Assembly: GCA_022574495.1 (NCBI GenBank) | Contig: JACZRW010000001.1 | Location: 1 to 52,549, forward strand | Reading direction: 5' to 3' | Origin: Patescibacteria group bacterium | GTDB lineage: Bacteria; Patescibacteriota; Microgenomatia; Woykebacterales; RBG-16-39-9b | Length of the DNA: 52,549 nucleotides | Shown here: positions 5,829 through 37,136 of the stretch, piece after piece | How the letters are laid out: the number at the start of each line of letters is the position of its first letter | Numbering within the stretch: position 1 is the first letter of the stretch | The notes under the pieces: model-generated | What the model was told of the DNA's origin: nothing | Seen by the model: the letters and a program-made list of their open reading frames with translations, nothing else | The model's database searches: none | Program-made: the position numbers and the translations under genes

Positions 5829-6110
5829 ATGACCAATAAGCCACTAACAGATAGACCAGAAGTCGTCTACGATTATATTTGGAACCAACTCTCTGAAAAG
5901 GAGAAACGTATTCTTGCCTACTGGGCGAGGTATATGGATGAGTATCTATCGATCCGTTGGATCAAAGCAGGAGCCTGTCTTAGGTCACTGCACGACAGAG
6001 AGTTAACTGCTCTTAACGCCAAGTTAGCCAGACTCAATTCAGGGTTGCGAATATCCTGTCGAAAGGAGGAAGAATCAAACCGTATTACGTGGAAGCTAGA
6101 AAAGAAATAG
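5829..6110 (+). CDS. Hypothetical 93-aa protein (first ORF of island A)
   Basis: ORF preceded by GAGAGGAGAGAGC and followed by a strong terminator. No family recognised. G+C is intermediate to high relative to the backbone. Confidence 0.45.
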   Translation: MTNKPLTDRPEVVYDYIWNQLSEKEKRILAYWARYMDEYLSIRWIKAGACLRSLHDRELTALNAKLARLNSGLRISCRKEEESNRITWKLEKK

Positions 6111-6122
6111 CATCTTCAATGA

Positions 6123-6203
6123 AGAAAGTGAGGGGAGGGGGCGGACCTTTTGTGCAACAGCACAACTGGTTCGCCTTTTCCATTTCTAACCATAAATTTT
6201 TGA
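6123..6203 (+). repeat. Direct repeat copy 1 (terminator plus -35 module); partner at 7541-7621
   Basis: The two 81-nt copies align by hand with about four-fifths identity and three 1-2-nt indels. Weaker similarity continues to about 6256 and 7655. Confidence 0.85.
6140..6181 (+). terminator. Intrinsic terminator after the 93-aa ORF
   Basis: GGCGGACC...GGTTCGCC outer stem with an inner TTGTGC-AACA-GCACAA hairpin, followed by TTTTCC. Confidence 0.65.
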
Positions 6204-6409
6204 AAAACTTTAAGTCTTCTTTTTGACAAATCCCCTTCCCCTATTTCCCTAAGATGTTAGCTATGGTATATATAATGTACTGGAAGTAAGGCAACCGATC
6301 GCATAGTGATAAAGTTGGGAGGTAATCGCACTCTAACAATTAAACAACCCATGAAAGGTAGAGAGAGGAGGAAACAACGTGAGAAGGTCACATAGAGGAG
6401 GTGTGCCGG

Positions 6410-7489
6410 ATGGTTAGCGATACGTCGCAAGACCGTACGGTTCGAGGGAAGCCGAGCCATCCTTCGACCCAACCACAGACCCCGCCGTCCTCGGGCAGCG
6501 GGACTATGCAGAGCTAAAGCGTCGTATCGTCGCTGCGGGCCTGCTCGAAAAACAGCCGGGCTACTATGTCTTCAACGCGTCCGTCCGGCTGATGCTCCTG
6601 GCCACCAGCATTTTGTTCTTGTTCATCATCGACAACGTCTGGCTACAGATGCTAAACGCGGTGTTCCTGGCCTTCGCCTCCACACAGATCGGCTATCTTG
6701 GCCATGACGCCGGCCACCGGCAGATCTTCAGCGGCGCGCATCGTAACGACGTCTTCGGGCTGGGGATCAACTTCTTGCTCGCCATCAGCCGCACTTGGTG
6801 GGTTGATACCCACAACGAACACCACGTGGACCCCAATGACCTAGATTACGACCCACATACGAGGTTGCCTATCTTCGTCTTCTCCGATGAACAGGCCCTC
6901 AACAAGGAAGGGCTCCCAGCCCGCATCGTCGGCTATCAGAGTTTCTACTTCTTCCCCATCCTACTCCTAGAGTACTTGGGGGCGCGCCTGGCGAGCGTTC
7001 AGTTATTGTTGGCGGGGGAGGTGAAGGGGAAGTCGTGGGAAGCACTGGCGATGGTCCTCCACTTCGCCGTCTACTTCGGCCTGCTGTTCTACGCGCTTAG
7101 CTGGTGGCACGCGGTGCTCTTCATTGTCGTACACCAGTCGCTGCAGGGGCTCTACATGGGCTCCGTCTTTGCGCCAAACCACAAAGGCATGCCGACGTTC
7201 AACCCGTGAGGACAACATCGATTTCTTCCGCAGGCAGGTTCTGACGAGCCGCAACATCGTTGGGAATCCGATTGCCGACTTCTGGTATGGCGGGCTCAAT
7301 TACCAGATTGAGCATCACCTGTTCCCGAGCATGCCGCGGAACAAGCTGAGGAAGGCTCAGCCTATCGTGAAAGCATTCTGTGAGGAGCGCTCCGTCTCCT
7401 ACGCCGAGTGTAGCGCCTTCCGCTCGAATGTCTTGATCCTTCGGTACTTGCACCGAGTGAGTGCATCGCTACGACCACGTACAACTTAA
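6410..7489 (+). pseudogene. Membrane fatty-acid desaturase, disrupted by at least two frameshifts
   Basis: SD AGAGGAGGT plus ATG at 6410, in a frame that stops at 6517. The frame opening at 6418 carries DYAELKRRIVAAGLLEKQPGYY, HDAGH and HNEHH and stops at 7207-7209. The third His box QIEHHLFPSMPRNKL continues in the other frame (7208-7489). Confidence 0.75.
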
Positions 7490-7540
7490 GAGGCGCAGCA
7501 CCATCGGAAAGATAACTTCTGGTGAGAAAAGCGAGAGAGT

Positions 7541-7621
7541 AGAAAGTGAGGGGGAAACAGGCGGACCTTTGTGTGAAAGCACAACTGGTCCGCCTTTTCC
7601 ATTTCTACCCTAAATTTTTGA
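7541..7621 (+). repeat. Direct repeat copy 2 (terminator plus -35 module); partner at 6123-6203
   Basis: See 6123-6203. Confidence 0.85.
7560..7600 (+). terminator. Intrinsic terminator after the desaturase pseudogene
   Basis: GGCGGACC...GGTCCGCC followed by TTTTCC. Confidence 0.65.
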
Positions 7622-7646
7622 CAAAACCCTACCCAACCTTTAAAAT
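7618..7646 (+). promoter_or_regulatory. Promoter of the 7656 hydrolase gene
   Basis: TTGACA (7618-7623)-N17-TAAAAT (7641-7646). The ATG follows 9 nt later and there is no SD, so the mRNA is near-leaderless. Confidence 0.5.
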
Positions 7647-7655
7647 TCCCCCACA

Positions 7656-8255
7656 ATGACTAAATCTAAAAAACCAACAAATAAGAAACCAGAAAAAATT
7701 CATAAAAAACTAATTATCGTTCACGGATGGAAAGGCGCTCCAGAACAGGGTTGGTACCCGTGGTTAAAGAGTGAAATGGAAAGAAAAGATTGGGAAGTAC
7801 ATATCCCTGCTTTGCCAAATTCCAATAATCCAAAAATCCATGAGTGGCTTGGCTCACTTGCCCAAGTTGCTGATAGTGTGGATGAGAATACGTACATGGT
7901 TGGACACTCCTTAGGTTGTGTAACCATACTTAAATTCTTGGAAAATTTGGATGAGAAGCAAAAAATTGGCGGGGTTATTTTGATAGCCGGTTTTGATAAT
8001 CCCCTAGGAATTAAGGAAGTAGAAAACTTTTTTCAAGGACCTTTAAATTGGGATAAAGCGAAAAGAACTTGTAAAAAATTTATAGTCATTCATTCTGAGG
8101 ATGATCATGGCGTCCCAGCGGATAATGGAATAAGAATGAAGAATAACTTGGGAGCTAAAAAAATATTGGTAAATGGTTATAAACATTTTTCAGGTGATGA
8201 TGGCGTAAATTCTCTTCCTCTAGTTATCGAAGAACTCCTTGAAATTTCTAGCTAG
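7656..8255 (+). CDS. RBBP9/YdeN-family serine hydrolase (alpha/beta fold)
   Basis: IIVHGWKG..WYPWLK, GHSLGC nucleophile elbow, HSEDDHGVP, and GYKHF near the C-terminus. Collinear with YdeN as I recall it. Confidence 0.8.
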   Translation: MTKSKKPTNKKPEKIHKKLIIVHGWKGAPEQGWYPWLKSEMERKDWEVHIPALPNSNNPKIHEWLGSLAQVADSVDENTYMVGHSLGCVTILKFLENLDEKQKIGGVILIAGFDNPLGIKEVENFFQGPLNWDKAKRTCKKFIVIHSEDDHGVPADNGIRMKNNLGAKKILVNGYKHFSGDDGVNSLPLVIEELLEISS

Positions 8256-11164: not shown

Positions 11165-12808
11165 ATGGAGTCTCAAACTGTCCAACAAACTCCTCAACCT
11201 GAGGTTCAAGAAACCCCGAAGCCTTCAGGATCTAAAACTCGCATTGTAATTCTAATTGTAATATTAGTAATAGTGGTAGTTGCGGGGGTTGGTTTTTTCT
11301 TATTAATAAATAAAGGGCAAGAAGAAACTGGTCCAAAGGTAATTACCGGTTTGGATATAGAATCTATCACAATAGCACAGTCCCCTGCCTTTTCCGGCAT
11401 ATTTCCAGATTCAGTTCCAGATTTTGCAGAAGTTGTTTTCAACAACAATATTTTCGATGGTTTGGGGAGGATTGTTGATGGTGAGGTAAAGCCGGCTCTG
11501 GCTACAAGCTGGACGAATCCAGATAACACAACCTGGAGATTTACTTTACGTAAGGGTGTAAAATTCCACAACGGAGATGTGTTAAAGGCATCTGATGTAA
11601 AATTCAGTATTGACACCGCCCTGAAAGAAGAATGGCCCAATTCATTTAATCTTGGTACCGTGGACACCGTAGAAGTCGTGGATGACTTTACGGTGGATAT
11701 CAAAACAACATCACCAGATCCTGTTCTTCTCAATAGGATGGTTTTCGCCTTCATCGTGTCCGAAAAACAATATAAGAATCGAGGTGAAAGCGAAGCAGTT
11801 GGAACCGGTCCCTATAAATTCGTAAAAATGGATAAAGAACAAGTAACGCTTGAAGCTAACAATAATTATTTCTTGGGGACGCCAAAGGTAAAGAAAGTAG
11901 TCTATAAATTCTTCTCTGATGACGTTACTGATAAACAGTTGGTAGAGGCTCTTAAAAAAGGAGATGTAGATTTAGCTAAAGTAACCGACCAAAAATTAAG
12001 CCAAACATTGGGTTCTAGTTTCCAAGTAAAAAGTTTAGCCGACCCATTCATATCATTCCTCTGGATGGATACAGCTCGCGACAAAAGTCCTTATATTGAT
12101 AAATCACCAAATCCATTGAAGAGCAAACTTGTTCGCCAAGCCATGTATAAGGTAATCAATGTGAATAATATTATAAAGGAAGCCTCTATTTCTGCCGTTC
12201 CTGCCTCTCAATATGTCACCGACGCTATATTTGGATACAATTCGAATATAAATCGTCCGGCGCCAAATGTTGATGAAGCAAAGGATTTGATGAAACAATC
12301 GGGTTTTGCGGATGGATTTAATATCACGCTAGATATCCCAGGATTTAGATTAAAGGAAGGTGAAGCAATCGCTAAAGACCTTGAAAAAATTAACATAAAG
12401 ACCAAGGTAAATGGGTTAACAAGAGATGAGGGTTTTGAAAAATTGGTGATTAAACAAGACACTTCTTTATTTGTTTTTGATTATGGTGCGGAGACTTATG
12501 ATGCTGGTGAAATATTCACAGACATTTTACATTCAACAGATGATACCTATGGATCAGTCAACCTAACAAGCTATAGCAACGTGGAGACAGACAAATTAGC
12601 AGAAGAAATAGCCTCAATATTTGACACTAAGACCAGGGCAACCAAACTTCAAGAAGCTATGGTGAAGGTTATGGAAGATTTACCTATCATACCTCTTTAC
12701 AGCCTGAAATCTTATTACACTTTTGGTAATGATATTGACTGGACCCCTACTGCCTTTGGAGCCATCTATGCCAATGAGATTTCCGGTCGAGAAGTTATTA
12801 CTCAATAA
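11165..12808 (+). CDS. ABC transporter substrate-binding protein, family 5 (peptide/nickel type)
   Basis: 547 aa with an N-terminal anchor. LATSWTNPDNTTWRFTLRKGVKFHNGD is the classic SBP_bac_5 signature. Confidence 0.75.
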   Translation: MESQTVQQTPQPEVQETPKPSGSKTRIVILIVILVIVVVAGVGFFLLINKGQEETGPKVITGLDIESITIAQSPAFSGIFPDSVPDFAEVVFNNNIFDGLGRIVDGEVKPALATSWTNPDNTTWRFTLRKGVKFHNGDVLKASDVKFSIDTALKEEWPNSFNLGTVDTVEVVDDFTVDIKTTSPDPVLLNRMVFAFIVSEKQYKNRGESEAVGTGPYKFVKMDKEQVTLEANNNYFLGTPKVKKVVYKFFSDDVTDKQLVEALKKGDVDLAKVTDQKLSQTLGSSFQVKSLADPFISFLWMDTARDKSPYIDKSPNPLKSKLVRQAMYKVINVNNIIKEASISAVPASQYVTDAIFGYNSNINRPAPNVDEAKDLMKQSGFADGFNITLDIPGFRLKEGEAIAKDLEKINIKTKVNGLTRDEGFEKLVIKQDTSLFVFDYGAETYDAGEIFTDILHSTDDTYGSVNLTSYSNVETDKLAEEIASIFDTKTRATKLQEAMVKVMEDLPIIPLYSLKSYYTFGNDIDWTPTAFGAIYANEISGREVITQ

Positions 12809-12863
12809 CACTAACACCTAAGGTTACTACTATCTCCCATTGTGCTAAAATTTATTTAGAAAA

Positions 12864-14342: not shown

Positions 14343-14371
14343 TCTTAACTACGCAGGATTGTATAGTACTA

Positions 14372-15091: not shown

Positions 15092-15328
15092 ATCCCCCGA
15101 AAGTTCGGGGAACAAAAAAATTCTCCCGCAATTTTGGAAGACGAGGGCATTATACTAAACGGTCAAGAAAAAGTCAAGGCCTTAGGGCCGCAGACCCCGC
15201 CGAAACGCTCTTTGAACCGGGTATGGATAAGCGAAGCTTGTGAACTTCGTTCTAATATACTGAAAAGGTGAAAAGTAAGGCTATGTGGGGTCAAGTCTAT
15301 GACCTTCACCCGAAGCTTTATCGTAATG

Positions 15329-15402
15329 TGGAGGCGACGAGCGGATTCGAACCGCCGTAAAAGGTTTTGCAGACCTCTACCTAGCCACTCGGTCACGTCG
15401 CC
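15329..15402 (-). tRNA. tRNA-Cys (GCA), with encoded CCA
   Basis: Minus-strand read: GGCGACG TG ACC GAGTGGCTA GGT A GAGGT CTGCAAA ACCTT TTAC GGCGG TTCGAAT CCGCT CGTCGCC T CCA. The acceptor stem has 7 perfect pairs and the anticodon loop is CU-GCA-AA. Confidence 0.85.
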
Positions 15403-15480
15403 CCAGTTTGAGCCTAGATTATAGCATATGAACTTAAAAAGATAAAACATTAATCGTGGATACCTTGTAACCTATAGTGG

Positions 15481-15509
15481 TTGACTTTCAGTTAGAAATG
15501 TGTTAGAAT
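15481..15509 (+). promoter_or_regulatory. Near-consensus promoter driving island B
   Basis: TTGACT (15481-15486)-N17-TAGAAT (15504-15509) with a TGT extended -10, preceded by CCTATAGTGG. Confidence 0.6.
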
Positions 15510-15516
15510 CTAGGTT

Positions 15517-15919
15517 CTAAATAAGGCACGAATAAAGAAATATTGTACGTGGAATTTTTAGTTCTTTTGAGCTAAGGATTTTAGTTGCAAGATTTATTTT
15601 AGGTATTTTGCTCCTTAAAAACTCCTTACTTGAGTTACGTAATCATGAACAACTCGTGGTTACTTACCTCGAGTGAGGTTCGCGAGAGCGGTAAAAAATA
15701 TAGTTATACATTCAAAAGAAAGGATGGTAAGCGATACATGCACTAAGAGGCCAAAACCACCAGATCCGGTAGCGAGCATCCCTGCTCTACAAGAATGGTC
15801 TCCCTTCGGAGAGGCAAGTCCGTAATCTAACAACGGGCGGAGCAGGGAGGGTTTTAGTCCCTTCGGGGATACCCTGCTCATGATGCGCATAACATCAACC
15901 GGAGAAGGAGGAATTTGCC
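15517..15919 (+). promoter_or_regulatory. ~400-nt 5' leader of the helicase gene; A+T-rich first third, then G+C-rich and structured
   Basis: No convincing ORF. A UUCG-loop hairpin (CCC-TTCG-GGG) and a second small hairpin (TCTCC-CTTC-GGAGA). GAGCAGGG (15840-15847) is complementary to two identical CCCTGCTC copies (15780-15787 and 15872-15879). Confidence 0.4.
15659..15674 (+). repeat. Left-edge copy of an imperfect direct repeat bounding island B
   Basis: GTTACTTACCTCGAGT compared with GTTACTCAC-TCGAGT at 19009-19023. Both lie at the composition switch. Confidence 0.4.
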
Positions 15920-18900
15920 TTGGATGGCATTCTACCAATCTCCCAGTACCGTGAGTACATAGTGCAAACGGTGCGAGACAACCAGGTTACAATCTTGGTT
16001 GGTGAGACAGGTAGCGGCAAAACCACACAAGTTCCGGTGTATCTTCTGGATGCTGGCTTCGGTCAGCGAGGACGCATCGGAATCACCCAACCTCGACGTC
16101 TAGCTGCCACTTCGGTGGCCGAGTACGTCGCGGATCGTATGGGTTGCCGAGTAGGCGAAGAAGTGGGTTATCAGATCCGCTTCGACGACACTACGACTGA
16201 GGGTACTCGGATCAGTTTCATGACTGACGGCATACTTCTGCAGGAAGCAAAGAGCGACCCGCTCTTCTCTCGTTATGAAGTTTTGGTGTTTGATGAAGCA
16301 CACGAGCGCAACCTCAACACCGACTTTGGTCTTGGTTTGGTCAAGCACGCCCTCAACACGCGAGATGACCTGAAGGTCGTTATCATGTCGGCCACAATCG
16401 ACGCCGATAAGTTCTCCGCCTTTTTCGGCGGGGCACCGATCATTAACGTCGAAGGTAAGACGTACCCAGTTGAGGTGCGCTACCTCGATGCGGTCGACGA
16501 GCAAGACGCGCAGGACCTCTTCATGGACCGTTCCATTGAGGCCCTCGCCGCCTTCAAGGTTGGTCAGATCCACCGCTCTGGCAAGCCGGGAGACATCCTG
16601 GTCTTCATGCCAGGGAAGGATGAGATCTACAAAACCATCCGATTAATTGAACAACTGCATCACCAAGACCTGCACACCCTAGCAGTTTACGGGGACATGA
16701 CGCCTCAGGAACAGCGTCGAATTTTCGACCGGTTTTCTGGACGAAAGGTGATCGTAGCTACCAACATTGCCGAGACCAGCATTACCATAGACGGCGTCGT
16801 GCACGTTGTCGACAGCGGGCTCATCAAGCAGATGAACTTTGACCCCAACACAGGGATCAGGTCTTTAAGCGTGACTGAGCACTCAAAGTCTGGTCTTGCG
16901 CAGCGACTTGGTCGAGCTGGACGCACCCAACCTGGTGTGTGTTGGCGGCTTTTCCTCTCTGAGGAGTACGAGACAGGCCGTCTTCCCTACCAGGGATGGA
17001 GCAAGAAGCAGCGCGATCAATTCACCAAACCAGAAATCCTGCGTACTGACCTAGCTGGTGTTGTCCTTCGGATGATCGGCATCGGTATCACCGACGTCGA
17101 GAGTTTCGAGTTTGTGGATATGCCAGTCGCTGGGGCAATCCATAACGCTTACGAAGCTCTCAAGGCTCTCGAGGCGTTGAACGAGGACAACCAGATCACC
17201 ACTCTTGGCCATCGGTTGCTTGATCTTCCGGTTGAGCCAAGAATCGGTCGAATGATCCTTGCCGCTGAGGACTACGGCTGTGCTGACGAGATTGTCACCA
17301 TCGCCGCCAGCCTTTCGGTGCGAGACGTCTTCCGACGTCCCAGGGACAAGGAGCTTGAAGCTGATGCAGCCAAAGCCCGCTTCACTGACCCAAGGAGCGA
17401 CTTCCTCACCACCCTCAACGTGGTTGAGCAGTATCTCGCTAACCAGGGTATAAGGGAGTGGACACAAGACAACTTCCTGAACTATCGAGCTTTGGAACAA
17501 CTCCTCAACATCCGTGGACAGCTCTTGGAAATCCTCGAGCGACTGCGTGTTGAGGTAGCATCGGTTGGGTATCGCAAACCCAAAGATCGATTCGACCCCA
17601 GTCCGGAGGAAAAGGCCCAAGCTGAAGCAATTGGTAAGGCCGTGACCGCGGGCTTGATTCAGAACCTTTCAATTCTCCGCAGGGGTGTGGACTACGTCCG
17701 CAACGGTGATCTAGTTCGCATCCACCCCGGTAGTGGTCTTTTCAGTGAGCTACCTCGCCTTCTTACCTGCGATAGTATCGTGAAAACGAAAACCCGCAAA
17801 AGCGGCATGATGAACTTCGCCAGAAGTTGTCAAGAGGTAGAACTTCCCTGGGTGGAGGAGATTGCCCCCCATCTACTGAAGACGGAGGTTGAAACGACGC
17901 CGTCCTGGAGCTACTCTCCAGAGGAAGGATACGTATACCAACGTCGAACGTACCTGGCCGGTGTCGAGATCTCCAGCGAGTCCACCCCTGCAAAGGGACC
18001 GGAAGTGGTACGGAAGTTTGCCGAGGATCTAGCCAACGAGCAAAGGTTCCTTAGCTTCATCAACCACAACCAGCAGGTCATGTACAGACTCGAGACAATT
18101 TATAGGGCAAGTGGCGGAATAACCAAGCTTCTTACCCGAGAAGAGCTCACTGAATTTTATGTCGAGCGGCTTGGGGACGCTACCACTAAAGCCGAATCCG
18201 AAGAGAAGAATCTGCAACTGAACCTCGATGACTACGTGTCTGCTGAGGAGAGGAAGCAGTACGGGTCAGAGCGACCGTCGCTGGTGTCTCAAGCAAGGGC
18301 CAGAATTTCCGATTTGGCGACAACCTTGCGAAAGGAAAGTCCGAAGGAACTCGATGAATTTACCAAAAACAAAATCGAGGACCTAAGGAAACGTCTAGAC
18401 GCCATGTCGTTGGACCCCAAAGAGTGGGGTTTCCAGTCTGGTTGGAACGGTAGTAGCCAGATCCGTTCCCTTTTGGGAGATCTACGCTCAGCCGAGGATA
18501 ATCTTCGGTGGGATCAGGAGACAGAGGCAGCTCGTGCAAAGATAGATTCTGTTCGCAGTTCTGTCGAGCGCCATGAGGAGCTGCACCAGCGAAGGCTGGA
18601 ACGACAAGCAAGAAAAGCGGAGGAGGAGCGGCAGGCCGAAGAGGAGCGCAGACAGCTTCAGCAGGAGGAGGAAGGATATAAGGAGTACGAGACAGCGCTA
18701 GTAGCGCTGAAGGCGAAGGCAGGAAGTTGGCCTGGCTTCGGTACCTATCAGTTCCCGTTCAACGCAAATGGTGATCCTGAGGATTATCTCCAAGACGGGT
18801 TTACCCACACGTTGGATTGGGATCACACTGAGGTGCTACCGGACGAGAACGAGTCTTATTGGGGCTTCGTTACTCAGACAATTCCACAAAATGGCGGTGG

Positions 18901-18964
18901 AACAATCAGAAAGATTGCTCTGCTACTGGAAGTCCGAAGCAAACCAGCTCACCTGTCTGACTAG
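15920..18964 (+). CDS. DEAH/RHA-box ATP-dependent helicase (HrpA-like) with a long C-terminal extension
   Basis: TTG start 8 nt after AAGGAGGA. GETGSGKTTQ (motif I), DEAHER (II), SAT (III), QRLGRAGR (VI). About 350 C-terminal residues include an EEERQAEEERRQLQQEEE charged helix. Line 16081-16140 has 35 G+C of 60. Confidence 0.85.
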   Translation: MDGILPISQYREYIVQTVRDNQVTILVGETGSGKTTQVPVYLLDAGFGQRGRIGITQPRRLAATSVAEYVADRMGCRVGEEVGYQIRFDDTTTEGTRISFMTDGILLQEAKSDPLFSRYEVLVFDEAHERNLNTDFGLGLVKHALNTRDDLKVVIMSATIDADKFSAFFGGAPIINVEGKTYPVEVRYLDAVDEQDAQDLFMDRSIEALAAFKVGQIHRSGKPGDILVFMPGKDEIYKTIRLIEQLHHQDLHTLAVYGDMTPQEQRRIFDRFSGRKVIVATNIAETSITIDGVVHVVDSGLIKQMNFDPNTGIRSLSVTEHSKSGLAQRLGRAGRTQPGVCWRLFLSEEYETGRLPYQGWSKKQRDQFTKPEILRTDLAGVVLRMIGIGITDVESFEFVDMPVAGAIHNAYEALKALEALNEDNQITTLGHRLLDLPVEPRIGRMILAAEDYGCADEIVTIAASLSVRDVFRRPRDKELEADAAKARFTDPRSDFLTTLNVVEQYLANQGIREWTQDNFLNYRALEQLLNIRGQLLEILERLRVEVASVGYRKPKDRFDPSPEEKAQAEAIGKAVTAGLIQNLSILRRGVDYVRNGDLVRIHPGSGLFSELPRLLTCDSIVKTKTRKSGMMNFARSCQEVELPWVEEIAPHLLKTEVETTPSWSYSPEEGYVYQRRTYLAGVEISSESTPAKGPEVVRKFAEDLANEQRFLSFINHNQQVMYRLETIYRASGGITKLLTREELTEFYVERLGDATTKAESEEKNLQLNLDDYVSAEERKQYGSERPSLVSQARARISDLATTLRKESPKELDEFTKNKIEDLRKRLDAMSLDPKEWGFQSGWNGSSQIRSLLGDLRSAEDNLRWDQETEAARAKIDSVRSSVERHEELHQRRLERQARKAEEERQAEEERRQLQQEEEGYKEYETALVALKAKAGSWPGFGTYQFPFNANGDPEDYLQDGFTHTLDWDHTEVLPDENESYWGFVTQTIPQNGGGTIRKIALLLEVRSKPAHLSD

Positions 18965-18996
18965 ACAAATAGGAAACACGTAACCTTAAGCGTGAG

Positions 18997-19045
18997 CCCA
19001 GGGATATAGTTACTCACTCGAGTAGCCGAAATGACCTGGGTTTTT
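18997..19045 (+). terminator. Weak terminator-like hairpin after the helicase gene
   Basis: CCCAGG (18997-19002) pairs with CCTGGG (19035-19040) around an ACTC-ACTC-GAGT inner hairpin, followed by TTTTT. Confidence 0.4.
19009..19023 (+). repeat. Right-edge copy of the island B direct repeat
   Basis: See 15659-15674. Confidence 0.4.
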
Positions 19046-19050
19046 CATTT

Positions 19051-20154
19051 CTACAATTTCTTTGCGTATTTGGAGAAGATCCAACCTGTTTTTGAGGCTT
19101 CGTAGATTATCTCGAACCAATCCCCTTGCTCTTTAGTTAAGCTAAACGTTTCTCCAGGTTTAATTTTTATAAGCACGTTATTGTTCGTACTCGGTCCGGA
19201 ACGAACGTTCAGAAACCCATTTGGTGTGTCCAATACTTCAATTTGAGTCGAGGCTTTTTTCGTCGAACCACCTTTGGTAATTTTATCCCATTCTTTTTTA
19301 GCTTCGGTCGATAATTTACCAGCAGAACTACTTAAATACCCTACGGTTATTTCTTTTTTCTTAGAATAATCCACAATTAGTGTGTAAGATTTACCATTTT
19401 CATCAATCAAAAGATCATATTTTTTAGGTACATTTTTCTCACTATTTTGAAAATACCAAATTGCTTCTACCCAAGCCCGGTAATCCTCATTTAAGTTAGT
19501 GTTATTTGTGGGTAAGTCGAACAAGGTAAATTTTCCTTTTTCAGAAAGTTTATCCGTCTTGGGATAAGGATCCAGTGCTAAAGCAACCCAAACTGTCAAC
19601 CTAAAACCACTCTCTATGTTAATACCAATCTCCCTAGTTATGTAACCCTCCTTCGAGATCTTAAGTTTGTGCACACCTGGATCGATGACTTGGGATATAG
19701 TCGAGGCCCCTAAAGACTCACCGTTCAGAGAGATCTCTGCTTTGTCCGGTTCGGTGACAACCGAGATTCCGGCCCCGGATCTTAAATCCAATATCTCTCC
19801 AGAGGAAAATTTCTGGCTTGGCGCAAACTCGTAATTAACACTTGTCACTGCGGAAGGGTTTAAATCGATTTTTTGCTTAAGTTCAACTGCCCTAAAAGTT
19901 TTTTCTTTTGCTTGTTCAGAAAAAGTTTGGACGTTCGCTTTCAGGAGAATGTCATAACTGCCCACCTTCAAGTCCTTCTTTTGAAGAGGTGATTCTCCAA
20001 TCACCTCCCCAGACAAAAGTATTTTTGATGTTGGCGAACTAGTTACTTTAAGGAATGCTTGTGGGGGGCTAAGCTGAGGAATTAAAAACTGATAAATAAA
20101 AAAACCGGCTACTAAAATTATTGCAAAGGCAGACACTTGTAATATCTTTTTCAT
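19051..20154 (-). CDS. Membrane-anchored PEGA-domain protein with a C-terminal SH3b domain
   Basis: Two PEGA-like units (LLSGEVIGESPLQKKDLKVGSYDILL and SLNGESLGASTISQVIDPGVHKLKISKEGY). C-terminal GFLNVRSGPSTNNNVLIKIKPGE...GDWFEI. Confidence 0.65.
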   Translation of the reverse strand: MKKILQVSAFAIILVAGFFIYQFLIPQLSPPQAFLKVTSSPTSKILLSGEVIGESPLQKKDLKVGSYDILLKANVQTFSEQAKEKTFRAVELKQKIDLNPSAVTSVNYEFAPSQKFSSGEILDLRSGAGISVVTEPDKAEISLNGESLGASTISQVIDPGVHKLKISKEGYITREIGINIESGFRLTVWVALALDPYPKTDKLSEKGKFTLFDLPTNNTNLNEDYRAWVEAIWYFQNSEKNVPKKYDLLIDENGKSYTLIVDYSKKKEITVGYLSSSAGKLSTEAKKEWDKITKGGSTKKASTQIEVLDTPNGFLNVRSGPSTNNNVLIKIKPGETFSLTKEQGDWFEIIYEASKTGWIFSKYAKKL

Positions 20155-22780: not shown

Positions 22781-22781
22781 T

Positions 22782-27847: not shown

Positions 27848-27848
27848 A

Positions 27849-28652: not shown

Positions 28653-28782
28653 GAGTGAGATTATACCATTTAGGTTGAAATAGATAACATCGAACTCGAC
28701 GAGAAACCCTAGCGCAAGCTGTATAAGCGGCTTTAGTTGCTTTTAGCAACACAGGATTCTAACGAAGTGAATCCTATAGTAC

Positions 28783-28811
28783 TTGACTTTTAGGCTGTTT
28801 TCTGCTATAAT
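28783..28811 (+). promoter_or_regulatory. Consensus promoter driving island C
   Basis: TTGACT (28783-28788)-N17-TATAAT (28806-28811) with TGC extension, preceded by CCTATAGTAC. Confidence 0.6.
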
Positions 28812-29001
28812 ATAGGAGTACTTTAAGGTAAATATATACGTTACAAGTGAAGGCATCTTGTAACTGGATTGAATCTTCGCCCGCTACTTGGTATCTAACC
28901 AAGAAGCTATTATTCTCTCTGGTTACTAGGTGCCCTTTTAGGTATCTTGGAGAGTGCAGGCCAGAAGAGTCTGTGTTCTTGTATCAAAGTAGGAGGTAAA
29001 G

Positions 29002-29343
29002 GTGAGTAAGTTGATTTTGGAGAATAAGCCGTTAAAGTTCGAGCTCTTGAAGCTCGAGTGTTCATGCGGTACCATCCTTCAGGCTTTCCAGCCTGATGAA
29101 GGGGAGTACCCTGACGTTGAGGGGGAGATGATAGGTGTTCCGACCTTAAGCTCATTCGAACCCTGGTGGACAGAACGTGCCGACGAGGAGGATCGGGGTT
29201 GGGCCGCCAAGGAGGAGGAGAAATTCATTGAGGGCGGGCTCTATGCCGCCAGCCTCGAGGATGCGTTGCGAAAGCAGCCTGTCCATGACGTCTTTTCAAC
29301 TGGCGGCGTTCTGATCAAGACTGGCCACAAAACGGACACCTAG
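29002..29343 (+). CDS. Hypothetical acidic 113-aa protein (island C)
   Basis: GTG start 4 nt after TAGGAGGTAAAG. G+C-rich (line 29161-29220 has 41 of 60). No family recognised; contains CSCG and EEDRGWAAKEEEKF. Confidence 0.45.
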   Translation: MSKLILENKPLKFELLKLECSCGTILQAFQPDEGEYPDVEGEMIGVPTLSSFEPWWTERADEEDRGWAAKEEEKFIEGGLYAASLEDALRKQPVHDVFSTGGVLIKTGHKTDT

Positions 29344-29551
29344 CCTCAAACCTCGTCTGCTCTGACGCGACGGAAAAATAAGTTCAGAGAATGTGCGCGG
29401 TGCTGAGACTTTGTTGAAGCACAACAAGCGTGCGGGCTGGAGGGGAAATGTTCGGCAACGAACCTCTTCTCCTCCAGTTAATAAGGTTGCAATGACTTGG
29501 CTCCACGTGCCGCAGCTGGATAACCAACTAAAAGTCAATAAATTGGAAATG

Positions 29552-29578
29552 CGACCTAGCGATAGGTCGTTTTTCTTT
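29552..29578 (+). terminator. Intrinsic terminator closing island C
   Basis: CGACCTA-GCGA-TAGGTCG followed by TTTTTCTTT. Confidence 0.65.
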
Positions 29579-29582
29579 GGAA

Positions 29583-32536: not shown

Positions 32537-32548
32537 AAAGGATCTGTC

Positions 32549-32845
32549 ATGAGCTTAGCGGAGAAGGTGACATTAGTCATCTGGCTCGCCGTCATTGGTT
32601 TGATGCCAATAGCAGAGATCGCAGGAAATAACACGCTGAACCTGATCTTGCTGCTGCTTTTCTGGGCGATTAGCCTAGTAGTCTCGGTGCCTTTCATCAG
32701 GTCTACGTGGAGCCGGTCAAGTAATCGAAAACTAGGGCTCATACCCTTCACTATTGGATGGTTCGCAGTGGTGATGAGTGGAGCATTGGTGTTACTGCTG
32801 ATTTCTCCAAAGCGTCGGGAAATTGAGGAAGGGAGGCTGCCATGA
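32549..32845 (+). CDS. Small 3-TM membrane protein, 98 aa (island D, ORF1)
   Basis: G+C-rich ORF starting 12 nt after the rmuC stop. Three hydrophobic helices. Confidence 0.5.
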   Translation: MSLAEKVTLVIWLAVIGLMPIAEIAGNNTLNLILLLLFWAISLVVSVPFIRSTWSRSSNRKLGLIPFTIGWFAVVMSGALVLLLISPKRREIEEGRLP

Positions 32846-32937
32846 CCGAATGGTTGACGGCCACGATATTCTTCACCCTCTACCTGGCTGGAATAACTGT
32901 GTTAAGAAGGTGGGTGGCTAAGCACCTAAGTTGGTAG
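32842..32937 (+). CDS. 31-aa single-TM peptide (island D, ORF2)
   Basis: Not in the track (<60 aa). ATGA start/stop overlap with ORF1. MTEWLTATIFFTLYLAGITVLRRWVAKHLSW. Confidence 0.35.
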   Translation: MTEWLTATIFFTLYLAGITVLRRWVAKHLSW

Positions 32938-32950
32938 AAAGGAGGCTGAT

Positions 32951-33265
32951 ATGGTGGAGAAATTGCCAACACTAGCTGTCTACCTTGGTTTTCTCATGGT
33001 AGGAGCGCTAATGTGGGCCATTTTGGTAATGTACGGCATCGAAGACTTTTGGGTATTGGCGACGATTTCAATATCTACAGTCTGGATGTTAGGCGCAGTT
33101 ATCACTTGGTTCATCCTCTGTCTGCATGACCGGGCAGTAGATGGCAGATGGAGCATCCTTAGGGATTTGTATGCCAAGGCCTGGACGAGTGGCTTTTGGT
33201 TCATCACCTTCCCACAACTGGATCTCGAAGTGAGGAACCAGGAGATGAATGAAGCCGGCCAGTAA
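32951..33265 (+). CDS. Small 3-TM membrane protein, 104 aa (island D, ORF3)
   Basis: AAAGGAGG SD 5 nt upstream. Hydrophobic helices and a Trp-rich sequence. Confidence 0.5.
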   Translation: MVEKLPTLAVYLGFLMVGALMWAILVMYGIEDFWVLATISISTVWMLGAVITWFILCLHDRAVDGRWSILRDLYAKAWTSGFWFITFPQLDLEVRNQEMNEAGQ

Positions 33266-33285
33266 CCAGTACGACCTGTCCGCAA

Positions 33286-33323
33286 AACCGCCGTCTCCTC
33301 ATGAGCCGGCGGTTACCATTTTT
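33286..33323 (+). terminator. Intrinsic terminator closing island D
   Basis: AACCGCCG (33286-33293) pairs with CGGCGGTT (33307-33314), followed by ACCATTTTT. Confidence 0.6.
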
Positions 33324-33342
33324 GTGATAGAATTTGTTGACG

Positions 33343-36333
33343 ATGAAGGATAATTTGAAGGGTTTGAATAAAGCTCAGAAAGTGGCGGTAACTACTACCG
33401 AAGGTCCCCTACTAATTATTGCTGGCGCCGGAACTGGGAAGACTATGGTTATCACCCACCGCATCGCCCGTATTATTAAGAAAAAACTTGCTAAACCTTC
33501 CGAAATTTTGGCTCTTACTTTTACCGAAAAAGCCGCCGGAGAAATGGAAGAAAGAGTAGACGTGCTGGTTCCCTACGGCTATATAGATACTTGGATTTCC
33601 ACTTTTCACGCTTTTGGAAATAAAGTACTGCAAGAAAATGCTATCGATCTAGGCCTTCCACCAGATTATCGGGTGATGACCCGCCCGCAACAAGTTCTCT
33701 TTTTCCAACAAAATCTTTTCGCCTTCGATCTTTCTTATTATCGACCCCTCTCCAACCCAACCAAATTTATTGAAGCCATCCTATCTTTTATAAGTCGGGC
33801 TAAAGATGAAGATATTTCTCCAGAGCAATACCTAGCCTATGTGAAAAAGCTAAAAAAGACCTCTCCAGCAAAGCTAGATTTATCTAAAGAAGAATTCAAA
33901 ACAGAAATAAAGAGACAAGAGGAACTAGCTAACACTTATAAAAAATACGAAGATTTAAAAGAAAAAAATGGGCTTTTGGATTTTGGAGATCAAGTGGTAC
34001 TTACCCTGCGCCTTTTTAGGGACCGGCCGAAGATATTGAAAGAGTATCAAGAAAGATTTAAATATATTCTGGTAGATGAATATCAAGATACCAATTGGGC
34101 GCAGAATGAACTGGTAAAACTTTTGGCGAGTTATACAAAGAACATCTGTGTTGTGGCTGATGACGATCAATCTATCTATCGTTTTCGGGGGGCGGCGATA
34201 AGTAATGTTTTGGAATTTAAAAAAACTTACCCTAAAGCAAGAGTAGTTTCATTAATAGAAAATTACCGATCCACCCAACCACTGTTAGATAGTTCATACC
34301 GATTAATTAAGCATAATGATCCAGACCGTCTAGAGGTGAGAGAAAAAATAAGTAAGAAGCTTTTGGCAGTCCGTAAAAATAAAGGAAGAGGTCCTACTGA
34401 ATTATTTGCAGACACGTTGAGTGAAGAAGCCGATCTTGTAGCAAAAGAAATTGAAAATCTTACTCGGGGATTTCACCCAAAACAACCAGGAAAAAAAGCA
34501 GCTGGAAAGTATAGATCGCTTCGTGGGCTAAATTATCGAGATATCGCGATTTTGGTGCGAGCTAATTCTCAAGCCGATCCATTTTTACGTTCACTTAATA
34601 TGAAAGGAATCCCTCACAAATTTGTTGGTTCTTCCGGACTTTATAATCAGCCAGAAGTAAAACTTTTGATTTCCTACCTTTCCGCGATATCAAATTTTGA
34701 CGATAGTTTAAATCTATACAACCTTGCATCATCTGAAATTTATAAACTACCTATTGAGGATGCAATTACCGCTATGGATTTTGCAAAAAAGAGAAGTAAA
34801 ACTTTACGAAATGTGTTTGAAAAAATTGCAGACGGTGATGAAGAAGTGACAGTCAGTGAGGAAGGGATGGTAATAATAGAAAAAATTATTAACGATTTAA
34901 AAGCCGCGGCCGAGCTTTCCAAAAAAGAAAATGTGGGCCGGGTGCTTTATGATTTTTTAAAAGACACCGGTTATTTATCTCGACTAGAAAGAGAAGGGAG
35001 CATCGATTCGGAAATTAAGGTTCAAAATATTTCTAGATTTTTCGATAAAATAAAAGAGTTTGTAGATCTTGTTCAAAATGAATCTACCCGCGCGTTTGTG
35101 GATTACCTAGAGACGATGAGAGGAGTGGGAGATGATCCAGCTACGGTGGAATTTGATCCAGACTTGGACGCGGTAAATGTAATGACTGTACATTCTGCCA
35201 AAGGATTAGAATTTCCGGTGGTTTTTCTCGTAAATCTAGTGGCTGATCGTTTTCCTTCTCGGCAACGTGGCGACCCGATCCCTCTACCAGATGATTTAAT
35301 AAAAGAAACTTTACCAGCCGGAGACTTTCACATGCAAGAGGAAAGAAGGCTTTTTTACGTAGGGATGACTAGAGCCATGGATCGACTATATTTTTCCTGG
35401 GCCAGGGATATGGGTGGAAAAAGGATCAAAAAAGTCTCTCCTTATGTGTTAGAAAGTCTTGATAAGATAGAGTCAATTGCAAAATTAGTAAAATTATCTG
35501 CGGTTGAAAAAATTAAGCAGTTTGCCCCAGTAGAAAAGAAAAATTATAAACTCCCCCAAGCCGACCAAAAAATAATCAAACTAACCCAAGGATCAATTGA
35601 TGATTACGAGACTTGTGCGTATAAATATCGCTACGCCCATGTATTACGTCTACCAATTCTTCGCCATCACGCCATAGTTTACGGTTTTGCTCTGCACGCC
35701 GCCGTCGCCGAATTTTACCGACAAAAAATGAATAGAAGAAAACCCACTCTAAAAAAATTACTTGAGGTTTTAGAAAATACTTGGGTTACCGAAGGATTTC
35801 TATCCGCCGAACACGAAGAAAATAGATTGGAGCAAGCCAAAAAGGTGCTGGAGAGTTTCTATAAAAGAGAAAAGGATAAAAAAGAACTGCCAAAATTTAT
35901 TGAGAAAAATTTCCGTTTTAGTGTTGGTGATGTGTTGGTTACCGGGAGATTTGATCGTGTCGACGTTGAAGGGAACAAAGTTCGTGTTATCGATTTTAAA
36001 TCTAGTGAAAATCGTTCCCTGGAACAATTAGAAAAAGATGCAAAGAGTAGTGTGCAGCTGAGAATATATGCGTTGGGTTATTATAAAAGTTATGGAGTGA
36101 TACCAAAGTTTGTAGGGATTTATGATTTAGAGTCTGGACTTATCGGTGGTTATGAACCCACAAAAGAAGTGATGAAAAAGACAGAAGAGGAAGTGGTGGA
36201 GGTGGCCAGAAACGTACGTGGGGATCTACAAAACGATGCGTTCGTTGCCAATCCAAAGTATTTCGGCCGCCTCCCCGCCTGTTACTACTGTCCATACAGT
36301 AGTATATGCCCATTCTCACTAGCCAAAGGTTAA
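33343..36333 (+). CDS. UvrD/PcrA-type superfamily-1 helicase fused to a C-terminal PD-(D/E)XK (Cas4/AddB-like, 4-Cys) nuclease
   Basis: AGAGTGKT, VDEYQDTN, YRS, VMTVHSAKGLEFPVV. C-terminus has GRFDRVD...VIDFKSS...QLRIYALGY plus C-x(n)-CYYCPYSSIC. TGaTAGAAT box lies 9 nt before the ATG at 33343. Confidence 0.85.
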   Translation: MKDNLKGLNKAQKVAVTTTEGPLLIIAGAGTGKTMVITHRIARIIKKKLAKPSEILALTFTEKAAGEMEERVDVLVPYGYIDTWISTFHAFGNKVLQENAIDLGLPPDYRVMTRPQQVLFFQQNLFAFDLSYYRPLSNPTKFIEAILSFISRAKDEDISPEQYLAYVKKLKKTSPAKLDLSKEEFKTEIKRQEELANTYKKYEDLKEKNGLLDFGDQVVLTLRLFRDRPKILKEYQERFKYILVDEYQDTNWAQNELVKLLASYTKNICVVADDDQSIYRFRGAAISNVLEFKKTYPKARVVSLIENYRSTQPLLDSSYRLIKHNDPDRLEVREKISKKLLAVRKNKGRGPTELFADTLSEEADLVAKEIENLTRGFHPKQPGKKAAGKYRSLRGLNYRDIAILVRANSQADPFLRSLNMKGIPHKFVGSSGLYNQPEVKLLISYLSAISNFDDSLNLYNLASSEIYKLPIEDAITAMDFAKKRSKTLRNVFEKIADGDEEVTVSEEGMVIIEKIINDLKAAAELSKKENVGRVLYDFLKDTGYLSRLEREGSIDSEIKVQNISRFFDKIKEFVDLVQNESTRAFVDYLETMRGVGDDPATVEFDPDLDAVNVMTVHSAKGLEFPVVFLVNLVADRFPSRQRGDPIPLPDDLIKETLPAGDFHMQEERRLFYVGMTRAMDRLYFSWARDMGGKRIKKVSPYVLESLDKIESIAKLVKLSAVEKIKQFAPVEKKNYKLPQADQKIIKLTQGSIDDYETCAYKYRYAHVLRLPILRHHAIVYGFALHAAVAEFYRQKMNRRKPTLKKLLEVLENTWVTEGFLSAEHEENRLEQAKKVLESFYKREKDKKELPKFIEKNFRFSVGDVLVTGRFDRVDVEGNKVRVIDFKSSENRSLEQLEKDAKSSVQLRIYALGYYKSYGVIPKFVGIYDLESGLIGGYEPTKEVMKKTEEEVVEVARNVRGDLQNDAFVANPKYFGRLPACYYCPYSSICPFSLAKG

Positions 36334-36356
36334 ACATAAATATTAACCCATAGTAC

Positions 36357-36385
36357 TTGACAAGTGGGTAATTTTGTGGTATACT
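36357..36385 (+). promoter_or_regulatory. Consensus promoter driving island E
   Basis: TTGACA (36357-36362)-N17-TATACT (36380-36385) with TGG extension, preceded by CCCATAGTAC. Confidence 0.6.
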
Positions 36386-36669
36386 ATATGTATATTTACG
36401 AAGCTAATAAAGTAAGTTCATTTAGCTTCAATACAGGGGTAATTTAAGTTCAAAGGGAAGATTGAGAGGGACTTTTTTGTACTTTGAAAATTATGTACTA
36501 TAAGATAATAGACGTATCTTGCGTTCTGTGAATTAAAGAAGCTGAGTAACTTTCACTAGGCGACTGATGCCTGGATAGAGTTTTCAGGTGTGAGTGTTTG
36601 CCCATCTTAGGTGGTTAAGCACTCCCATCTGGGAGCGAGGATCGGTCAGAAGACAAGGAGGTCAAAGCA

Positions 36670-36846
36670 ATGAGCGGGTTGCAGCTAGCATGGGATGTGT
36701 ATGGAGATGGAAAAGTCTCGAGGCAAAAGGCTTTCGAGGGGTCTTCGTCGTCACGCTCTCGTCAAGCCCGTCTTAGCCGAAAGGTAACCCCGCGGGATTT
36801 GCGCCCAAGTCGAGAAAGGGACGGGGTGAGGAAATTCCAGCGGTAA
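36670..36846 (+). CDS. Possible 58-aa Arg/Ser-rich basic peptide inside the island E transcript
   Basis: Not in the track (<60 aa). AAGGAGGT (36655-36662) lies 7 nt before the ATG. MSGLQLAWDVYGDGKVSRQKAFEGSSSSRSRQARLSRKVTPRDLRPSRERDGVRKFQR. Confidence 0.3.
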   Translation: MSGLQLAWDVYGDGKVSRQKAFEGSSSSRSRQARLSRKVTPRDLRPSRERDGVRKFQR

Positions 36847-37094
36847 AGACTATTCAGAGCAAGGAGAGGAGGTGGTTGCAATTCATAGTTAGCAATCACT
36901 AGCAGATCTTCGTTGGGGGCGCGTAAGTAGGTTAATTCCGAAAAAGCGCGCCTCCTCCCAACTCTTAAAGATTTGGCCCGTAAGTGATTACGGGATTTAA
37001 AAAGAAAAGGAGGTGAATATTACTCCCTACCGCTTAGGGCCAAATTTTTGAGGGTTAGGAAAAGTAACACCAGTTAACTAGTTAATAAAAATCT

Positions 37095-37136
37095 GGCTCG
37101 GAATGGACGAAAATCCACTCTGGGCTAGTTTTTTTT
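37095..37136 (+). terminator. Intrinsic terminator closing island E
   Basis: GGCTCGGAATGGA-CGAAAA-TCCACTCTGGGCT, then AG and 8 T. Three G-U pairs make the stem valid only on the plus strand. Confidence 0.6.

Follow-up and report, generated by a model that had tools for sequence, protein, structure and literature searches.

How does a bacterium of the candidate phyla radiation (CPR) come to carry short, sharply G+C-rich segments in an otherwise A+T-rich genome? The question is raised by contig JACZRW010000001.1 (assembly GCA_022574495.1), a stretch of 52,549 nucleotides (nt) from a Patescibacteria group bacterium, which we call the window. A first-pass annotation, made from the sequence without database searches, had marked five G+C-rich islands here (A to E) and read them as repeated capture of foreign high-G+C DNA. 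Our comparison with related genomes and metagenome contigs gives a divided answer. Islands A, B and C are likely to be accessory cassettes that a Woykebacteria-like CPR genome carries at hotspots of recombination, and D and E to be old resident loci. CPR genomes are tiny and their cells depend on other cells, which makes the sources of their genes, and the routes by which genes are gained, an open question.

Composition and occupancy of islands A, B and C

In a sliding profile of 300-nt segments, backbone G+C has a mean of 0.370 (standard deviation 0.036, maximum 0.483). All segments at least three standard deviations above this mean fall inside the five islands, with the sole exception of that at 15101 beside the tRNA-Cys gene. 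G+C is 0.569 in A2 (the part of A that is missing from a sister strain), 0.531 in B, 0.520 in C and 0.502 in both D and E. At third codon positions (GC3), backbone genes have 0.21-0.37, as against 0.82 and 0.68 in the two desaturase fragments of A, 0.59 in the helicase of B, 0.67 in C, 0.59/0.59 in D and 0.56 in E. This contrast lies at silent sites; hence, the island signal is compositional and does not reflect amino acid (aa) usage. The five islands are real by both measures, and, as the first-pass annotation had stated, none of them interrupts an open reading frame (ORF) of the backbone. Island A had been drawn as rich from 5829 onwards, which did not hold: G+C is 0.44 from 5829 to 6110 (z = 1.8, not significant), and the rich part begins at ~6340.

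Island A reads as a recent cross-phylum capture of a desaturase of the Chloroflexota lineage, now decaying. The best homologue of its fatty-acid desaturase pseudogene (92% identical in aa, 90.4% in nt over 1,022 nt) lies on L093, a contig of 65.6% G+C that carries PEPCK, GlnA, AsnB and Pirin genes and whose AsnB falls in the same 90%-identity cluster as a protein named Chloroflexota bacterium. Further desaturases, 67-77% identical, are named Chloroflexota or Dehalococcoidia. GC3 of the desaturase is 0.82 in the window and 0.83 in the Chloroflexota-type donor gene. These Chloroflexota proteins and those of the window itself belong to one accession series (MCH7..., MCH8...), which suggests a single study for both. 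In a three-taxon polarised count with an 80% homologue as the outgroup, the window branch has 66 changes, 40 of them GC>AT vs 14 AT>GC; the Chloroflexota branch has 40 changes (20 GC>AT vs 14 AT>GC). Three-frame translation reads the window gene in two frames plus an extra N-terminal shift; indels lie near 6416-6450, a single nucleotide is inserted near 7202, and NCBI annotates the gene as two fragments (MCH8820896.1 and MCH8820897.1). The AT-biased changes, together with the frameshifts and deletions on the window branch, argue for amelioration and decay in an A+T-rich recipient and hence for a transfer from Chloroflexota to CPR. For A, the donor, these changes and an empty site all favour the capture of foreign high-G+C DNA that had been proposed for every island. 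Another Woykebacteria genome carries an intact, G+C-rich desaturase (L095:8001-9050; 57% identical, GC3 0.75).

The empty site lies in L003, a contig from another sample with 98.9% identical flanks, which joins window position 6206 directly to 7617. The first-pass annotation had called for a search for empty sites retaining a single repeat copy, and L003 retains one, identical to the left copy of the window. The imperfect direct repeat that had been noticed at A is present as described (6149-6208 vs 7568-7627, 82% identical). The island is flanked by groEL and a 93-aa ORF on one side and by a Ser-hydrolase gene on the other. The 93-aa ORF occurs in the sister-strain contigs L003 and L008 and has no match in Pfam, NCBIfam or PADLOC.

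Island B, with its gene for an HrpA-like RNA helicase, behaves as a mobile accessory gene that would circulate within the A+T-rich CPR gene pool. It lies between tRNA-Cys/M23 peptidase genes and a PEGA-SH3 gene. L189, from another sample, matches the window at 99.3% over 12367-15408, continues with an 89-nt spacer, and then matches 19052-24609 at 95.8%; L190, from a second sample, likewise lacks B. The two alleles differ by replacement of 3.64 kb by 89 nt. No direct repeat is found at the junctions as set by these two empty-site contigs, and the 15-of-16-nt repeat (15698/19004) that had been taken to mark the edges of B sits within the island they delimit. A replacement of this size without repeats points to homologous recombination in the flanking DNA. 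L092 holds B at the same locus, 99-100% identical in the promoter, leader and 5' half and 75-86% identical in the 3' part, a pattern that marks this copy as a putative recombinant mosaic.

A B unit that is 84% identical and spans leader, gene and terminator (window 15550-19056) occurs in L010, another genome of 35% G+C, among entirely different neighbours; the promoter ahead of it is 87.5% identical to that of island C. A 46%-identical helicase on a 938-kb contig is likewise richer in G+C than its surroundings. Helicase homologues with a named source are from CPR (Parcubacteria, Minisyncoccia, Patescibacteria). Acquisition, or at least strain variability, thus stands for B, which is absent from two contigs and present in L092; an origin outside CPR does not, as the nearest relatives are other CPR genes. 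The match of the helicase to TIGR01967 is below cut-off. No relative of the helicase was found in a viral contig collection, which speaks against the phage origin that we had considered. Membership of a defence system was also set aside, as PADLOC on the island ORFs yielded weak generic helicase matches alone and NCBIfam was silent on the small ORFs.

The locus of the 46%-identical helicase (L011: GCA_030704665.1 JAUYID010000009.1:435752-458772) is a fine mosaic of segments of about 43% and about 55% G+C, and its G+C-rich segments are mostly short ORFs without a Pfam match. The island pattern may be widespread in CPR.

Island C occupies a gap today, as had been stated, but it splits a metG-tatD pair whose members abut in relatives. 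The gap is closed or nearly so in five relatives and holds unrelated small ORFs, at a mildly raised G+C of about 0.45-0.51, in two others (Table 1). The insertion reading for C is thus favoured by the five empty sites and by the unrelated ORFs in the two closer relatives. At the C-site of L013, the promoter, the leader and the end of the terminator are common with the window, and the ORF (105 aa) is unrelated to the 113-aa ORF of the window. At that of L028, the promoter is related, the 128-aa ORF is unrelated, and the leader is unalignable. Common arms around unrelated ORFs, as in the window and L013, are what would be expected if conserved arms had recombined and so exchanged the cargo. A tiny family of small proteins includes the 113-aa protein: in a search of 1.84 billion representatives, four small proteins of similar length share the motifs CxCG...P..S.F..W...GG..A..DAL...HDV. 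An AF2 model of it was not usable (pLDDT 44).

Could the islands be artefacts, that is, high-G+C pieces joined to a CPR contig by faulty assembly or binning? Nine contigs from other samples that carry an identical GroEL all stop within 24-520 nt past groEL, close to A. Seven of the nine end within 5709-5849, past the groEL terminator, and the other two near 6109 and 6300, which suggests further strain heterogeneity or a branch of the assembly graph before the 93-aa ORF. Against this, both junctions of C are spanned by L091, a 1,116-nt contig from another sample that is 100% identical across them, and both junctions of B by the equally independent L092. The pattern recurs in L010, L095 and the relatives. 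The gene in A differs by 10% from the nearest Chloroflexota sequence, is frameshifted, and sits within a CPR-type promoter, leader and terminator and a diverged repeat. Strain polymorphism, as between L003 and the window, is the better explanation for where the contigs break. Chimerism, which the first-pass annotation had wished to see checked, is excluded for A, B and C by these independent assemblies, and as an account of the islands at large we regard it as extremely improbable.

Islands D and E and the equivalent gaps in relatives

We searched species-representative genomes with the UvrD/PcrA-Cas4-like protein encoded between D and E (33334-36333). Of the 78 loci found, the best are from Candidatus Woykebacteria (66-80% aa identity). 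Gene order around C, D and E is conserved in the syntenic Woykebacteria loci and in the metagenome contig L118. The gaps equivalent to D and E hold G+C-rich inserts of 0.3-3.4 kb with differing content (L013-L016, L027 and L028). From these alignments, the C, D and E gaps appear to behave as hotspots across the family, on the evidence of one 52-kb window and eight syntenic loci.

The contents of D and E in the window nevertheless look inherited. L013 holds, in the same place, a homologue of the third ORF of D (36% identical), and the D-sites of other relatives hold other small G+C-rich membrane ORFs, some of them related to one another. The split direct repeat that had been claimed for the edges of D was not recovered. 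The 58-aa protein of E is 61% identical over 46 aa to a same-site ORF in L118, whose UvrD-like protein is 67% identical to that of the window. The promoter and leader of E (36355-36502) and its 3' block (36952-37134) are conserved with L028, which keeps promoter, leader, Shine-Dalgarno sequence (SD) and 3' block around a different, Cys-rich mini-ORF of 32 aa. Stretches of the 3' block, which spans roughly 200 nt, are almost the same in the window, L028 and L118; no reading frame is conserved there, and Rfam has no match to the block. Between its paired segments (36863-37090; L028:13473-13656; L118:505-704, minus strand) lies a perfect SD-like AAGGAGGUGA, with no conserved ORF after it. The first-pass annotation had itself said that segments which relatives share in both place and composition would mark ancestral genes, and the relatives carry just such homologous, G+C-rich segments in place. 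Capture is therefore not upheld for D and E, which we read as old resident small-protein and RNA loci, not recent imports. Nor does a single element type cover all the islands: A, B and C are strain-variable or empty elsewhere, and D and E are inherited.

If D and E are inherited, all five islands might be ancestral and intrinsically G+C-rich, with no horizontal transfer at all. Besides the equally G+C-rich same-site homologues of D and E, such a history would suit the E-site proteins of L013 and L016 (347 and 352 aa), which are 48% identical and both G+C-rich, and the 57%-identical Woykebacteria desaturase, which is G+C-rich too. It is already refuted for A and B, which are missing from contigs 96-99% identical to the window, and A is moreover 90% identical in nt to a Chloroflexota gene with AT-biased changes; the C-site is empty in five relatives. 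We judge ancestry of all five improbable, and return to hotspot cassettes for A, B and C.

Several observations touch the hotspots themselves. The E-sites of L013 (14396-16186) and L016 (13599-15772) hold a two-gene G+C-rich module in which the 347/352-aa protein has a weak ChrB_C match; the upstream proteins both end in ...GPGRYS and are otherwise dissimilar. Lipid-related G+C-rich cargo recurs in Woykebacteria, with FabD-like, SDR and LipB genes (L015:6600-9900), a desaturase (L095) and the pseudogene of the window. Fatty-acid synthesis is not generally known from CPR bacteria. The gene between D and E (33334-36333) encodes a PcrA/UvrD helicase fused to a Cas4/AddB-like nuclease, and rmuC lies just upstream; that hotspots bracket recombination genes may be coincidence.

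Promoters, leaders and a recurrent leader RNA

How would such cassettes be expressed? A2, B, C and E all follow the layout described by the first-pass annotation: extended -10 promoter, long leader, strong SD, cargo, then a hairpin terminator. The wider claim of self-contained cassettes in gaps fails for D, whose first ORF begins 13 nt past the rmuC stop and which has no promoter of its own. An SD precedes 7/7 island ORFs vs about 6/42 backbone ORFs; its bearers are groES, groEL, rpsT and a few others, plus all island genes. The statement that backbone genes follow closely behind a -10 box without an SD was borne out: many start 4-12 nt after a TAnAAT-type -10 box (for example 7641-7658, 28652-28665 on the minus strand, 33325-33345, and 38008-38020 on the minus strand) and are probably read from leaderless mRNAs.

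Islands B, C and E have a promoter motif in common, CC(Y)ATAGTNNTTGAC-N15-TGnTAnAnT. We tested it as an island-specific signal and rejected it as such. The form CCYATAGTNNTTGAC-N15-TGNTATAAT occurs in 93 metagenome stretches (L096-L188) on contigs of 31-51% G+C, where, by our estimate from its 20 specified bases, about one chance occurrence would be expected. G+C downstream of the motif exceeds that upstream by >0.05 in 30 of 71 cases, with the reverse in five, and many matches drive ordinary or leaderless genes. The motif thus has the look of a strong, lineage-wide promoter, and the cassettes would be expressed from native-type signals. A conserved CCYATAGT sits just upstream of the -35 box and may extend the promoter or bind a factor, in either case as a trait of this lineage.

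The leader of C is of a different kind. We found 11 instances of this RNA in the loci fetched, each after a strong promoter and before a different G+C-rich small ORF (Table 1). These ORFs are mutually unrelated, with a GC3 of 0.52-0.72 in host loci of 0.39-0.47 G+C. The hairpin has the form AAGGCAUCU(U/A)GUAACUGG ... CCAGUUACCAGGUGCCUUUUU around a variable core, and RNAalifold gives 27 consensus pairs, 10 of them with a compensatory change. An upstream GUUAC(A/U)(A/G)G complements the 5' strand of the hairpin and co-varies with it (AU/UA swap in four of eight sequences); this antiterminator helix is 98.4% paired, and the observed score was reached by 9/500 shuffles. Covariance-model matches score 62-112 bits, the window copy has a minimum free energy of z = -4.1, and Rfam has no match to it. 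The layout of terminator and antiterminator, with covariation, is that of a putative, as yet undescribed attenuator-like RNA. The core of an integron attC site is GTTRRRY. An attC-like reading of the C hairpin was rejected, as GUUACCA misfits this core and the hairpin lies 5' of the ORF.

The 3' half of the B leader also looks structured, with UUCG-type hairpins and an SD that is predicted to be paired. Its consensus fold with L010 and L092 (-90 kcal/mol) has 82 pairs, mostly invariant or wobble, one of them compensatory. In both L010 and L092, this leader is better kept than the 3' part of the gene. It may act as an autoregulatory or sensor element.

Should the islands, then, be seen as structured RNA genes, G+C-rich for that reason and overlain by spurious ORFs? 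The leaders of B and C and the 3' block of E are RNA-like, and the 58-aa ORF of E lacks a G+C contrast between codon positions. GC3 is, on the other hand, well above GC2 in the ORFs of A, B, C and D, Pfam domains are present in A and B, and the proteins of C and E are conserved at the protein level. Among known RNA genes, Rfam (at gathering score and E <= 5) and ARAGORN returned tRNA-Cys alone, besides unrelated sub-threshold matches. An explanation by RNA genes is therefore very unlikely.

A further possibility is that promoter and leader travel as a portable unit, such that the five islands form one cassette family on an integrase-free platform with integron-like logic. A Microgenomatia-type promoter and leader RNA would then be a recombinase-free landing and expression pad at which G+C-rich ORFs are exchanged, and the Chloroflexota origin of A might mark the host of an epibiont. 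The promoter motif shared by B, C and E, the leader RNA ahead of 11 mutually unrelated ORFs (with tandem units in L152) and the different mini-ORFs of E in the window and L028 all suit this idea. The promoter, though, is a general one by the counts above, the leaders of B, C and E are mutually unrelated, and D has no promoter. When its covariance model was run against the window and 99 loci, the leader RNA was found once in the window and at none of A, B, D and E; it is also absent from the C-site of L028. Neither a recombinase nor a repeated recombination site was found. We hold the platform to be unlikely, and favour separate turnover of A, B and C at hotspots.

Table 1. Features of the five islands, their sites in relatives and copies of the leader RNA (positions refer to the window unless a locus is named)
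Feature	Position	Strand	Description
93-aa ORF with SD (A1)	5829..6110	+	not significantly G+C-rich; no family match
Left copy of imperfect direct repeat	6141..6206	+	resident terminator hairpin (GGCGGACC...GGTTCGCC + T-run) plus TAAATTTTTGA
Island A2	6207..7616	+	segment missing in sister strain L003
Extended -10 of A2	6264-6276	+	TGGTATATAAT; then leader, AGGAGG, desaturase pseudogene
Fatty-acid (acyl-CoA) desaturase pseudogene	6411..7489	+	PF00487 on both fragments
Second terminator-repeat copy	about 7561-7616	+	82% alike; right end of A2
tRNA-Cys (GCA)	15329..15402	-	Rfam, ARAGORN; left border of island B
Island B	15409..19051	+	replaced by unrelated 89-nt spacer in L189, L190
Promoter of B	15471..15509	+	CCTATAGTGGTTGAC-N15-TGtTAGAAT; sequence motif
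Helicase 5' leader	15510..15919	+	roughly 400 nt; G+C-rich structured 3' half 15659-15919
DEAH-box HrpA-like RNA helicase	15920..18964	+	1014 aa, TTG start, long charged C-terminal extension; Pfam DEAD, Helicase_C, HA2, OB_NTP_bind
Hairpin terminator of B	18997..19046	+	CCCAGG...CCTGGG + TTTTT; read from sequence
Island C	28653..29582	+	930-nt unit between tatD and metG (both -); gap comparison with relatives
Promoter of C	28773..28811	+	CCTATAGTACTTGAC-N15-TGcTATAAT; sequence motif
Leader RNA of C	28812..28945	+	GUUACAAG (antiterminator strand), then hairpin AAGGCAUCUUGUAACUGG...CUGGUUACUAGGUGCCCUUUU at 28845-28942
113-aa ORF of C	29002..29343	+	GTG start; SD AGGAGG at 28989-28994; GC3 0.67
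Terminator of C	29551..29575	+	CGACCTA-gcg-ATAGGTCG + TTTTT; 3' half common to L013 C-site
Island D	32537..33333	+	three tandem small membrane-protein ORFs, without own promoter, 13 nt after rmuC
D ORFs	32549-32845, 32842-32937, 32951-33265	+	tandem small membrane proteins
D terminator	33286-33325	+	
Island E	36334..37135	+	small-gene plus RNA locus between UvrD/PcrA-Cas4-like and FemAB-like genes
Promoter of E	36347..36385	+	CCCATAGTACTTGAC-N15-TGgTATACT; sequence motif
E ORF	36670..36846	+	58-aa basic small protein; SD AAGGAGG; homologue in L118
E non-coding 3' block	36863..37136	+	UUGGCCCGUAAGUGAUUACGGG...AAAAGGAGGUGAAUA...AGGGCCAAAUUUUUGAGGGUUAGGAA; terminator about 37093-37136 included
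C-site in relatives	tatD / metG		0-10 nt in L014, L015, L016, L027, L118; 856-900 nt with unrelated ORFs in L013, L028
D-site in relatives	rmuC / uvrD-like		L015: up to 3.4 kb, FabD-like, enoyl-ACP-reductase-type SDR, LipB, up to 61% G+C
E-site in relatives	uvrD-like / femAB-like		L013, L016: 347/352-aa protein, 48% identical, opposite orientation
Leader RNA copies	L013:5338-5445; L126:909-1014; L143:112-284; L155:12190-12295; L180:5677-5784; L182:5611-5719		
Leader RNA copies	L158:1059-1165; L181:4177-4282	-	
Leader RNA copies in L152	2120-2218 and 3240-3339	-	two units in tandem

A probable route of gain and its parallels

By what route could the cassettes of A, B and C have been gained? Uptake of DNA followed by homologous recombination at the hotspots is, in our assessment, the probable one. 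A few gaps between conserved genes would act as hotspots at which accessory DNA is gained, swapped and lost. DNA taken up by transformation would be incorporated via homologous recombination in conserved flanks, be these core genes, the tRNA-Cys gene, a conserved promoter and leader or terminators, with no need for an integrase; for an ORF as foreign as the desaturase to be captured in the first place, a rarer illegitimate or homology-facilitated event would be needed. Expression would then proceed from lineage-typical promoters and canonical SDs, on which the long-leadered genes would depend. In the window, no integrase, transposase or relaxase was found in a Pfam scan of 48 ORFs (at least 93 aa long; 52106-52408 and the first five lay outside the scan), nor by PADLOC and NCBIfam on the island ORFs, in keeping with the first-pass annotation. 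A type IV pilus gene, PilO, is present. Another CPR phylum, Saccharibacteria, has been shown to be naturally competent (PMC10187176), horizontal gene transfer (HGT) in Patescibacteria is common and mostly within the phylum (PMC12455944), and hotspots without mobile elements have their contents exchanged through recombination in the neighbouring core genes (PMC5635113).

Several points weigh against this reading. The comparison sequences are all short-read metagenome assemblies, and a donor was identified for A alone among the five islands. Recombination is read from the mosaic identity of L092 (75-100%) and from the unequal flanks of B (99.3% vs 95.8%). At A, the empty site of L003 could equally reflect insertion or a deletion between repeats that are 82% identical, and an 18% divergence of the repeats misfits a duplication at a recent insertion among 99%-identical strains. 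The duplicative (Campbell-like) insertion that had been proposed for the islands fits A only, with deletion an equal candidate there, and it does not fit the repeat-less replacement at B. As the repeats of A are 82% alike, either the incoming DNA already held a homeologous copy or a recombination event at the right end of the repeat removed the cassette from L003; the former would mean that the cassette arrived from a related genome by recombination. Finally, GC3 in D and E is still about 0.56-0.6 despite deep divergence, which misfits simple acquisition followed by amelioration. Three candidate causes may be considered: the genes are replaced again and again from a G+C-rich pool, gene conversion is biased at recombination hotspots, or RNA structure is under selection.

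Minimal mobile elements, as defined in PMC3082526, and hotspots free of mobile genetic elements (MGEs) both fit what is seen here: flanks that are conserved, sites that are empty or differently filled, identity in a mosaic, flanks that diverge unequally and, at B, a replacement without repeats. A, B and C have what marks both: conserved bracketing genes, alternative or empty occupancy, and no mobility genes. In the minimal mobile elements of Neisseria (Saunders & Snyder 2002; Snyder et al. 2007; PMC3082526), a conserved gene pair likewise brackets different whole-gene cassettes or none, without mobility genes, and exchange is credited to transformation and recombination in the flanks. The present cassettes differ in that they lie in an ultra-small CPR bacterium and their cargo is strongly G+C-shifted against the backbone. 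Every one of them also comes with a strong promoter, a long leader and an SD of its own, in a genome most of whose genes lack a leader or an SD. MGE-free HGT hotspots (Oliveira, Touchon, Cury & Rocha 2017, PMC5635113) resemble ours in that variable genes fall in a few core-gene intervals, turn over rapidly and bear signs of flank recombination; they were defined from species pangenomes, whereas ours come from one window and eight loci, and D and E also hold inherited genes. The genomic islands of Patescibacteria (PMC12455944) are similar in their atypical composition and in being transferred mostly within the phylum, as B would be, and now and then from another phylum, as for A. Those were called by prediction software, unlike the single-gene islets of 0.5-3.6 kb here, which are resolved to the nucleotide and have empty sites. 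The pattern of A2, B and C is a further example of a known phenomenon, hotspot cassette turnover.

Other systems are more distant. An integrase-borne genomic island or integrative and conjugative element differs from B, which adjoins tRNA-Cys at the 5' (promoter) side rather than the 3' end and has neither an integrase nor a junction repeat. Integron cassettes are alike in placing variable ORFs, predominantly small orphans, behind a constant upstream platform. Here, unlike in integrons, there is no IntI (no recombinase domain in the scanned ORFs), no attI and no attC; B, C and E have their own promoters, and the recurrent hairpin, that of the C leader, precedes the ORF and has a terminator-like U-run at its end. 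Phage morons share the single gene with its own promoter and terminator, the position between resident genes and the deviant composition; ours are not in a prophage, and the scans run returned no phage genes. Morons were reportedly described by Hendrix and colleagues.

Island A would thus be a failed acquisition of a lipid-modifying gene caught in the act, from Chloroflexota to Woykebacteria, and B a helicase unit on the move among CPR; both are resolved to the nucleotide and have an empty site. The Chloroflexota donor lineage is a lead to a possible partner organism of Woykebacteria. Of the host origin that the first-pass annotation had considered possible, what has been established is that Chloroflexota, the phylum of the donor, occurs in the accession series of the window. 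Separate leads are the attenuator-like RNA ahead of diverse accessory genes, the lineage-wide promoter motif, and the high GC3 of old hotspot genes.

Strain variation in the window also extends beyond the islands. The segment 24610-26303 is absent from L189 and L190; it covers most of a second PMT_2-family glycosyltransferase paralogue (24670-26328) of ordinary A+T-rich composition, and relatives carry one or the other paralogue. Upstream of groES, contig L004 from another sample has an extra ~100 nt (2315-2414) relative to the window at about 3555-3559.

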